DNA of 64,000 nt, from NCBI RefSeq assembly GCF_055900595.2, contig NZ_CM148325.1, one strand, 5' to 3'. Positions 25,836-26,652 of this stretch are shown here, in pieces. The position numbers and the translations under genes were made by a program. Position 1 is the stretch's first letter. Every line of letters begins with the position of its first letter. Under the pieces are notes generated by a model. That model was not told the DNA's origin. It saw only the letters and a list, made by a program, of their open reading frames with translations, and did not search any database.

Positions 25836-26051
25836 AGGTGTATTGCTCAATCTTCGAACGGGGGGAGGATTGTAGCAGAATCGCATTTGAATGTGACCGA
25901 GTGAAAACCGCTAACCGGATGGCTGCGGATGTTTAAATCAGAGAGGGAAGGCCGAAACCGGAGTGCATCATGAATCCATTAGACTTAGAAAATATCGGGT
26001 CGTAACGTTGTGTTATTACTTTTTCAGAGTTTACTAAGGAGAGGTTTACTC

Positions 26052-26501
26052 GTGGCGATTAATTTCAGCCCCAAGGTTGGTGAAATACTGGAATGCAACT
26101 TTGGTAACTATCCTGTTAGCCAGAATGGACAGTTCAGCACGACGTATTACGATGGCCGCATTCCACCTGAGATGATAAAAAATAGGTTGGTTGTCGTGCT
26201 CAACGGAAAAATTAATGGCAACGCATGTATCGTCGTTCCATTATCAACCACTCGCGACCATGACAAGTTAAATCGTGGAATGCATGTTGAAATAGCCAGT
26301 AATGTTATCAATGACCTGCAATTCTTTGATCAGCAGATACGTTGGGCTAAAGCCGACCTGGTACAACAAGTCAGTCGAAACCGATTAAACAGAGCAAGGA
26401 CTTATCGGGGGTATCTTAATCAATGTTTGCCACATGAGTTGGTTGCAGACATACAGAGGGCAGTCATCAAGTCAATCAATGCCATATCGCTCATAAATTG
26501 A
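26052..26501 (+). CDS. yifN: PemK/MazF-family toxin-like protein (yifN-like), apparently intact
   Basis: ORF between rep and ppiC; start placed at GTG 26052 preceded by AAGGAGAGG SD (26037..26045); PemK-like layout (N-terminal P-x-x-G-E-I, then LVVVLNG ... CIVVPLSTT). Recollection that the K-12 locus here is annotated as a PemK-family pseudogene. Confidence 0.6.
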   Translation: MAINFSPKVGEILECNFGNYPVSQNGQFSTTYYDGRIPPEMIKNRLVVVLNGKINGNACIVVPLSTTRDHDKLNRGMHVEIASNVINDLQFFDQQIRWAKADLVQQVSRNRLNRARTYRGYLNQCLPHELVADIQRAVIKSINAISLIN

Positions 26502-26577
26502 CAATAAAATCACCATCCCCGATAATGACTCTGTAGCCCATAGAGGCCCTAAGTTTTCTCCCCTTGAGGGACCTGCG

Positions 26578-26600
26578 AAGCCCGGATTTTCCGGGCTTTT
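26578..26600 (+). terminator. rho-independent terminator downstream of yifN
   Basis: Hairpin aagcccgg-atttt-ccgggctt followed by TTT. Confidence 0.6.
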
Positions 26601-26652
26601 GCCATATATGTCCCCCCTCCCTGACTGACAATTTTTAATTCAAGGCACGATC

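Follow-up and report, generated by a model that had tools for sequence, protein, structure and literature searches.

YifN, a putative MazF-fold toxin of Escherichia coli, is linked to a conserved small RNA that may act as its antitoxin

Introduction

MazF and PemK are textbook type II toxins, a class defined by its protein antitoxins. In the type III systems (ToxIN, CptIN and TenpIN), the toxin is an endoribonuclease accompanied by a cis-encoded non-coding RNA of short tandem units, and ToxN structurally resembles Kid/MazF. Other RNA antitoxins, such as IstR for tisB and RalA for ralR, base-pair with the toxin mRNA. Here, we analyzed yifN, a gene in a 64,000-nt stretch of DNA (hereafter the window; contig NZ_CM148325.1 of NCBI RefSeq assembly GCF_055900595.2), which stems from the E. 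coli chromosome and contains gppA, rep (divergent), yifN, ppiC, ilvC and ilvY in this order. The original prediction, made from the sequence letters, had described yifN as an apparently intact, solitary PemK/MazF-like toxin gene. The gene and its K-12 pseudogene are already annotated and a small RNA (sRNA) beside it has been seen once; in our literature searches, no publication tied YifN to an RNA.

The linkage of yifN with a conserved ~70-nt RNA gene is very well supported by the data presented below, and in the reading towards which we lean, the two would constitute a type III-like module, in which a MazF-fold toxin is most likely neutralized through direct binding by the RNA. With MazF, ChpBK and PemK/Kid (PF02452), YifN shares the fold, the size class and the occurrence on both plasmids and chromosomes. 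Unlike those type II toxins, which have a MazE-, PemI- or Kis-type antitoxin gene, yifN is linked to a small RNA instead, and the adjacent protein antitoxin gene that marks a type II system is lacking. The likeness to type III lies in the combination of an endoribonuclease, here a predicted one, with a cis-encoded non-coding RNA, possibly one of short tandem units, and in the carriage on plasmids and mobile elements; the units of the yifN RNA are two, sometimes three, hairpins ~25 nt apart, whose sequences repeat exactly in some lineages but have diverged from each other in E. coli. In contrast to type III, where the RNA lies upstream of the toxin behind a terminator, the yifN RNA lies downstream with its own promoter at most loci, its units are far shorter than the 34-40-nt pseudoknots of type III repeats, and YifN matches PemK rather than the ToxN/AbiQ, CptN or TenpN families (no PADLOC match). 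RalR/RalA and SymE/SymR of E. coli likewise combine a nuclease-type toxin with an RNA antitoxin, but their RNAs pair with the toxin mRNA, whereas the yifN RNA shows no significant complementarity. Since YifN agrees with PemK/MazF in the tests applied and departs from the type II, type I and known type III architectures, we describe it as a putative RNA-partnered MazF-fold toxin.

YifN is predicted to be a MazF-type RNase

26052..26501, plus strand: yifN coding sequence (CDS), GTG start, 149 amino acids (aa), MazF/PemK-fold putative endoribonuclease toxin; defined by the open reading frame (ORF) and sequence, Pfam, AlphaFold2 with Foldseek, PGAP and dN/dS
26036..26044, plus strand: Shine-Dalgarno sequence of yifN, AAGGAGAGG, 7 nt 5′ of the GTG; the region is kept in Superficieibacter

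The intact 149-aa ORF with a GTG start and a good Shine-Dalgarno sequence, as originally predicted, was found in the window. A second GTG, upstream and in frame with yifN, lies at 26010, and Ribo-RET of E. coli yifN located initiation at the annotated start and at an in-frame upstream site (10.1101/520783). In an array study, YifN/YifO transcripts were up after an acid shift. PGAP names the product of the identical CDS 'type II toxin-antitoxin system PemK/MazF family toxin' (WP_000996698.1) in a strain that is 100% identical to the window across the 766-bp interval 25887-26652.

The proposed PemK/MazF likeness was borne out at the levels of both family and fold. The sole significant Pfam match of YifN is PF02452 (PemK_toxin), with residues 37-141 aligned to model positions 14-108 of 109 (E=1.2e-10). 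An AlphaFold2 model built from 36 homologs (predicted local distance difference test, pLDDT, 76; predicted template modelling score, pTM, 0.70) was compared with the PDB by Foldseek, and all 50 listed matches were of the MazF type (MazF, YdcE and MoxT), each with a probability of 1.00 and with TM-scores to the target of 0.63-0.79. The model thus predicts the SH3-like barrel of MazF/Kid with a C-terminal helix. Sequence searches of PDB chains, using either the single YifN protein or a profile, did not find MazF, so that the homology of YifN to MazF rests on Pfam and the fold comparison.

The catalytic residues, whose alignment had been suggested as a check, have plausible counterparts: profile alignment placed E24, R29 and T52 of EcMazF opposite E40, R45 and S65 of YifN at low confidence (hhalign probability 2-11%), and T48 of BsMazF also fell opposite S65 in a low-probability alignment. 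The E-x4-R-xx-VVL spacing, as read from the sequences, is identical in EcMazF and YifN. E40, R45 and S65 are invariant among 36 YifN homologs, where the invariant positions further include G10, C15, P39, K43, N51, V62, P63, K100, V107, S108, R111, L112 and Q135; the motifs PPEMxKxR, RWAK and VSxxRL are invariant and specific to the family, and the β1-β2 loop is ~16 residues longer than that of MazF. Based on the residue alignment, the conserved spacing and the independent fold match, YifN looks like an active MazF-type RNase, its activity being a prediction.

The YifN family is small, with 30 clusters at E<=1e-30 and 134 at E<=1e-10 among 1.84 billion representatives clustered at 50% identity. 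Its members, of ~150 aa and named "YifN (PemK superfamily)" by the sources, occur in Serratia, Photorhabdus, Xenorhabdus, Pantoea, Pseudomonas, Aeromonas, Shewanella, Roseateles and other hosts, and on 134 plasmids, including IncP-7 pCAR1, E. coli IncF/IncX and 6-kb Glaesserella plasmids. Their genomic contexts are mutually unrelated, the position between rep and ppiC being common only to E. coli and Superficieibacter. None of the NCBIfam and PADLOC models matches YifN, its only PHROGs match is phrog_15698 of unknown function, and the phage collection yielded only distant Vibrio phage homologs of 27% identity. On pCAR1-type IncP-7 plasmids (L004-L006 and L060; pCAR1.3 82-88 kb), yifN and the RNA belong to an extended series of small unannotated ORFs, all on one strand, that also includes an orphan N6 DNA methylase, a GNAT acetyltransferase and a metallophosphatase, a neighbourhood that resembles a plasmid leading-region or anti-defence gene array.

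A separately promoted small RNA gene lies downstream of yifN

26498..26526, plus strand: sigma-70 promoter of the small RNA, with -35 TTGACA at 26498-26503, a 17-nt spacer and -10 GATAAT at 26521-26526
26533..~26601, plus strand: yifN-linked small RNA gene, GUAGCCCAUAGAGGCCCUAAGUUUUCUCCCCUUGAGGGACCUGCGAAGCCCGGAUUUUCCGGGCUUUUG, ~70 nt, beginning ~30 nt past the yifN stop, with a predicted start at ~26533
26536..26547, plus strand: hairpin 1, GCC-CAUAGA-GGC, always at RNA position 4 or 5
26560..26570, plus strand: hairpin 2, CCC-CUUGA-GGG, preceded by a U-rich linker at 26548-26559
26577..26600, plus strand: intrinsic terminator, GAAGCCCGG-AUUUU-CCGGGCUUUU, a 10-bp helix common to yifN and the small RNA

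The label of a solitary toxin did not hold, as the 150-bp region downstream of yifN contains a conserved, separately promoted RNA gene of ~70 nt that is linked to yifN homologs. The ~70 nt after the yifN stop are nearly identical between E. coli and Superficieibacter, with one T inserted, one T deleted and one substitution, and the yifN CDS has a dS of ~1.6 in the same comparison, at which synonymous sites are saturated. Within E. coli, the 71-nt RNA is identical in six alleles, with CDS dS values of 0.15-0.17 between the window allele and four others, and the K-12 RNA equals that of the window at 71/71 nt. The promoter scan gave 11/12 consensus matches for the RNA promoter, and the yifN stop TGA (26499-26501) sits inside its -35 element. 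In K-12, an sRNA encoded 'downstream of yifN on the same strand' has been seen on a northern blot (Romero et al. 2014; PMC4681348); that study treated it as uncharacterised and did not tie it to yifN function.

A consensus structure and a covariance model were built from 23 sequences. The consensus consists of two small G:C-clamped hairpins, hairpin 1 (GCC-N6-GGC) and hairpin 2 (CCC-N5-GGG) at a distance of ~25 nt across the U-rich linker, and the terminator, and 95% of the cells in this three-helix structure are paired. In the terminator helix, compensatory changes were found at six pairs, 99.6% of cells are paired, and the observed covariation score was reached by none of 500 shuffles. The RNAalifold consensus showed compensatory C:G to U:A changes in hairpin 2, the stem of which is GCC/GGC or CGG/CCG in other lineages; the stem of hairpin 1 is invariant in the close set and swapped to GGC/GCC or CGG/CCG in homologs. 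The minimum free energy (MFE) fold of the E. coli copy has -27.8 kcal/mol (z=-2.8). A long alternative hairpin in that fold was rejected, because a G-to-A change in Xenorhabdus and in Photorhabdus L020, as read from the alignment, breaks it yet is compensated in the short hairpin 2. In the 64-kb window, the covariance model had a sole match, at 26533-26603 (82 bits, E=8e-17).

None of the 4227 Rfam models reaches its gathering score on the yifN-linked RNA. The best-scoring model, RF01772 (rnk_pseudo, the Pseudomonas rnk leader), shares the 3′ half, UUGAGGG...AAANCCC-stem-GGGNUUUUGC, with sub-threshold matches of 36.9 bits in Shewanella (L031 719-824, minus strand) and 19.9 bits in the window (26526-26608) against a gathering score of 55. 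Its 5′ half aligns to the promoter of the yifN RNA and not to hairpin 1, and it is described as the rnk leader and not as PemK-linked; RF01772 may be related to the yifN RNA class or be an orphan copy from it.

The RNA accompanies yifN homologs across Proteobacteria

Every YifN homolog examined with an identity of 38% or more (Enterobacterales, Pseudomonas, Beta-proteobacteria, Legionellaceae and plasmids) is accompanied by the unit of promoter, two hairpins and terminator, and recognisable variants follow homologs down to ~32% identity. The covariance model gave one strong match per YifN locus (27-93 bits), and did not find the RNA at the corresponding site of E. coli Nissle, which is without the cassette. 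A sigma-70 promoter of its own was found in all 34 RNA copies, with 7-11 of 12 consensus matches (at least 8 in all but one) and a spacer of 16-18 nt; the distance from the end of the -10 element to the RNA 5′ end is 6-7 nt in 32 copies and 4 nt in the other two. These promoters indicate that the RNA is a transcription unit and not just a 3′ untranslated region (3′ UTR).

The arrangement of the two genes varies. In Shewanella, the RNA is inverted and lies on the opposite strand, convergent with yifN and behind its own promoter, and in Massilia and Herbaspirillum it has been relocated upstream on the opposite strand with the promoter kept, Herbaspirillum having two copies. Homologs of 32-38% identity on Vibrio, Acinetobacter, Glaesserella and Drgb7 plasmids are accompanied by two exact hairpin repeats and a terminator; on the Vibrio, Acinetobacter and Drgb7 plasmids, these repeats are GCC-GCAA-GGC or GCC-GAAA-GGC at a distance of ~25 nt. 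Two loci have three hairpin units, and in E. coli the hairpins have diverged from each other.

When metagenome contigs were searched from the RNA side, with a pattern designed to leave out the E. coli variant, a yifN homolog was found directly upstream in five of five matches, three of these homologs being frameshifted; a scan of viral contigs with the RNA pattern gave no match. The RNA region is kept in all 4015 E. coli genomes that carry the locus, of which 4000 keep at least 80% of the CDS, and in many lineages the RNA is retained where the toxin gene is frameshifted, truncated or disrupted by an insertion sequence (IS). On the marine metagenome contig L072 (57-599), a Cas6f/Csy4-family gene lies directly 5′ of a YifN-like gene, and the contig ends where the RNA 5′ motif GTAGCCCT starts; this neighbour could be a coincidence or a hint of a link with hairpin-binding proteins.

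These observations bear on whether YifN could be a true orphan toxin or a domesticated RNase, with the downstream element being a terminator, a 3′ UTR stabiliser or an unrelated sRNA. Such a view has on its side that no protein antitoxin is found at the locus and that the element ends in a terminator used by yifN itself. A plain terminator, however, needs neither a conserved promoter at a fixed distance nor two hairpins whose sequences are conserved from E. coli to Betaproteobacteria; moreover, the promoter is kept where the RNA is inverted or moved, and a discrete sRNA appears on the northern blot. We therefore consider this explanation improbable. Control in trans or domestication, which had been offered to account for a lone toxin, is unnecessary given a cis-linked RNA partner of the putative toxin.

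No recurring protein antitoxin is found beside yifN

As originally predicted, no antitoxin-sized ORF was found in the flanks of yifN in the window, where the only upstream ORF has 11 codons. The ORFs of at least 35 aa adjoining 42 YifN loci were compared all-against-all by BLASTP, and no recurring family emerged, only close relatives being linked. Upstream ORFs that came into question as antitoxins at a few loci proved to be plasmid Rep-like, HTH or metallophosphatase genes. In distant PemK-like homologs of 32-36% identity on Vibrio vulnificus, Acinetobacter and Drgb7 plasmids (L061 1787-2513, L070 355-1216 and L068 410-1195), the toxin gene is directly preceded by a small or HTH ORF and followed by the two-hairpin RNA, which suggests a three-part arrangement; the 63-aa upstream ORF in Vibrio has no significant Pfam match.

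The RNA shows no consistent complementarity to yifN mRNA

In a type I-like mechanism, yifN translation would be blocked, or the mRNA degraded, through base-pairing of the small RNA with the ribosome-binding site or the coding region of the transcript. The C/U-rich linker and hairpin 2 (UUUUCUCCCC) could, by sequence reading, pair with the Shine-Dalgarno sequence at 8/9 positions, and in Photorhabdus akhurstii (L018 4001-4570) a duplex at +15..+54, in yifN codons 6-18 (SPKVG), exceeded shuffled RNAs with z=-3.3. Apart from this outlier, the duplexes predicted between the RNA and its cognate yifN initiation region or whole mRNA were no better than those of shuffled RNAs (z -1.5 to +1.4; 18 loci), a second comparison gave z ~0 in 12 of 13 loci, and the best sites fell at inconsistent positions between loci. 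In addition, the yifN initiation regions differ widely between loci, whereas the RNA core is nearly invariant. Since the duplexes do not surpass shuffled RNAs and their sites are inconsistent, antisense control of yifN is not supported, and we give it little probability.

yifN is an accessory gene under purifying selection in E. coli

25890..26630, no strand assigned: approximate extent of the yifN and sRNA cassette, missing from ~26% of E. coli genomes
26261, plus strand: T deleted in K-12, BL21 and ETEC4090 (CDS position 210, frameshift at codon His70) and present in the window; established from alignments and pseudogene flags

Of 5426 complete E. coli genomes, 4015 carry the yifN locus and 1411 (~26%) lack it; in strains without the cassette (e.g. 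Nissle 1917, S88 and JJ1887) the whole of it is missing and the gap between rep and ppiC is just 86 bp. Among 59 full-length matches in an evenly spread sample, yifN had 450 bp in 41 and 449 bp in 18, which amounts to a frameshifted gene in ~30% of the carriers. The annotation was intact in three of three checked genomes of the 450-bp type and frameshifted in three of three of the 449-bp type (K-12 MG1655, BL21 and ETEC4090). The statement in the original prediction that the K-12 locus is disrupted was correct: the K-12 pseudogene (formerly yifN/yifO) has the same position and RNA, is flagged 'frameshifted', and differs by a 1-bp deletion that is absent from the intact window gene. As the 450-bp form is commoner and annotated as intact, intact yifN is the majority state and the K-12 lesion belongs to one lineage.

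Divergent E. coli alleles, as well as the comparison with Superficieibacter, gave dN/dS values of 0.03-0.07 for yifN, and in one allele all 13 nucleotide differences are synonymous and none is non-synonymous, so that purifying selection on yifN is strong. Independently damaged copies are also numerous in the protein database, with other frameshifts, in-frame deletions and, in Shigella, IS-derived N-termini. The allele of O157 strain 644-PT8 (L054 401-850) carries C59F and A101T in the highly conserved ACIVVP and RWAKAD motifs and may be a hypomorphic toxin allele. The chromosomal cassette would accordingly be accessory in E. coli, given its absence from about a quarter of the genomes and its frameshift in the K-12/BL21 lineage.

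These results also speak to the suggestion that yifN of the window strain is a recently inactivated module or a decaying, non-functional remnant. The dispensability of the cassette, the frequent frameshift among its carriers and the many independent lesions would fit decay. In the window strain itself, the intact ORF, the low dN/dS, the allele with synonymous changes only, the presence of all catalytic and family-invariant residues and the intact RNA contradict it, and we regard this explanation as very remote.

A type III-like module is proposed

Neutralization of YifN through binding by the RNA is, in our analysis, the best-supported explanation, and one that we would put slightly on the favourable side. 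The RNA would be made in excess from its strong promoter and would occupy or occlude the RNA-binding groove of the YifN dimer, possibly with one hairpin per protomer and the U-rich linker as a pseudo-substrate, and each yifN read-through transcript would include a single copy of the RNA as part of its 3′ UTR. Once RNA synthesis ends, by plasmid or cassette loss, transcription shut-off or phage infection, free YifN would cleave cellular RNA and growth would stop. Decay of the toxin gene while the RNA stays, together with the occurrence of the cassette on plasmids, fits a harmful protein that is checked by an RNA.

Several points weigh against this proposal. The toxicity, RNA cleavage and RNA binding of YifN are all predictions, as is the antitoxin role of the RNA. 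The hairpin stems have only 3-4 bp, and hairpin 1, invariant in the close set, is supported by a handful of distant variants that were identified by eye. The RNA is perfectly conserved in K-12 despite the dead toxin, which fits a recent frameshift and equally a YifN-independent function of the RNA. The module is also unlike all characterised type III systems in having no 34-40-nt repeat array, an RNA placed downstream and a toxin other than ToxN, CptN or TenpN. Finally, in some distant homologs the small or HTH ORF upstream could be the true antitoxin and the RNA could have another role.

The RNA and YifN might also be partners outside a toxin-antitoxin relation: YifN could process or bind the RNA (cf. 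Cas6/crRNA), the complex could be a defence or regulatory effector, or the sRNA could regulate other mRNAs, of the host or of plasmids, in trans with yifN merely accompanying it. The linkage data show partnership and not the direction of control, the RNA is intact where the toxin is dead, the U-rich linker and the terminator tail could bind Hfq, the cassettes lie among accessory genes on plasmids, and at one distant locus a Cas6f/Csy4 gene is upstream. On the other hand, the invariant MazF catalytic residues suggest a nuclease and not a mere binder, repeated toxin loss with retention of the RNA is expected if the protein is harmful without it, and no PADLOC defence model matches. On balance, we find such a partnership unlikely.

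A wider claim has about even chances in our judgement, namely that YifN genes with their downstream two-hairpin sRNAs represent an unrecognised RNA-antitoxin class, in which a separately promoted RNA replaces the MazE-like protein. This class would be spread over Proteobacteria chromosomes and plasmids (IncP-7 pCAR1, IncF/IncX, small Pasteurellaceae, Vibrio and Acinetobacter plasmids), with a copy in most E. coli strains and the RNA half still expressed in K-12. If true, a whole MazF subfamily under the control of its own small RNA would make the line between types II and III less sharp, and the type of antitoxin would prove exchangeable on a conserved toxin fold. A class of "orphan toxins", listed as solitary by annotation pipelines and in toxin-antitoxin databases, would be accounted for, and an E. 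coli sRNA that is known from experiment but uncharacterised would gain a function. On plasmids of clinical and environmental relevance, the compact cassette of ~650 bp would then be a candidate for stabilisation or defence. E. coli offers natural controls, as there are strains with intact yifN, with the frameshift and without the cassette.

Other features of the locus

25970..26005, plus strand: 11-codon ORF upstream of yifN, probably not a conserved coding element

The start codon of the 11-codon ORF is ATG in the window, GTG in K-12 and TTG in Superficieibacter, where its Shine-Dalgarno sequence is also missing, and the encoded peptide is poorly conserved. On this lack of conservation, the ORF was rejected as an antitoxin or a leader.

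Between the RNA terminator and ppiC, K-12 (L002 3717-3812) and most E. coli have an extra segment of ~47 bp, bounded by a CCTGACTGACAATT-like direct repeat, which the window strain (26604-26652) is without. On the other side of the cassette, the 50 bp adjoining the rep start (window 25836-25890; the 5′ UTR/promoter side of rep) are strongly conserved between yifN-bearing E. coli and Superficieibacter, and have diverged in the cassette-less strain Nissle (L009 1037-1090), which indicates that the cassette indel also alters the upstream region of rep.

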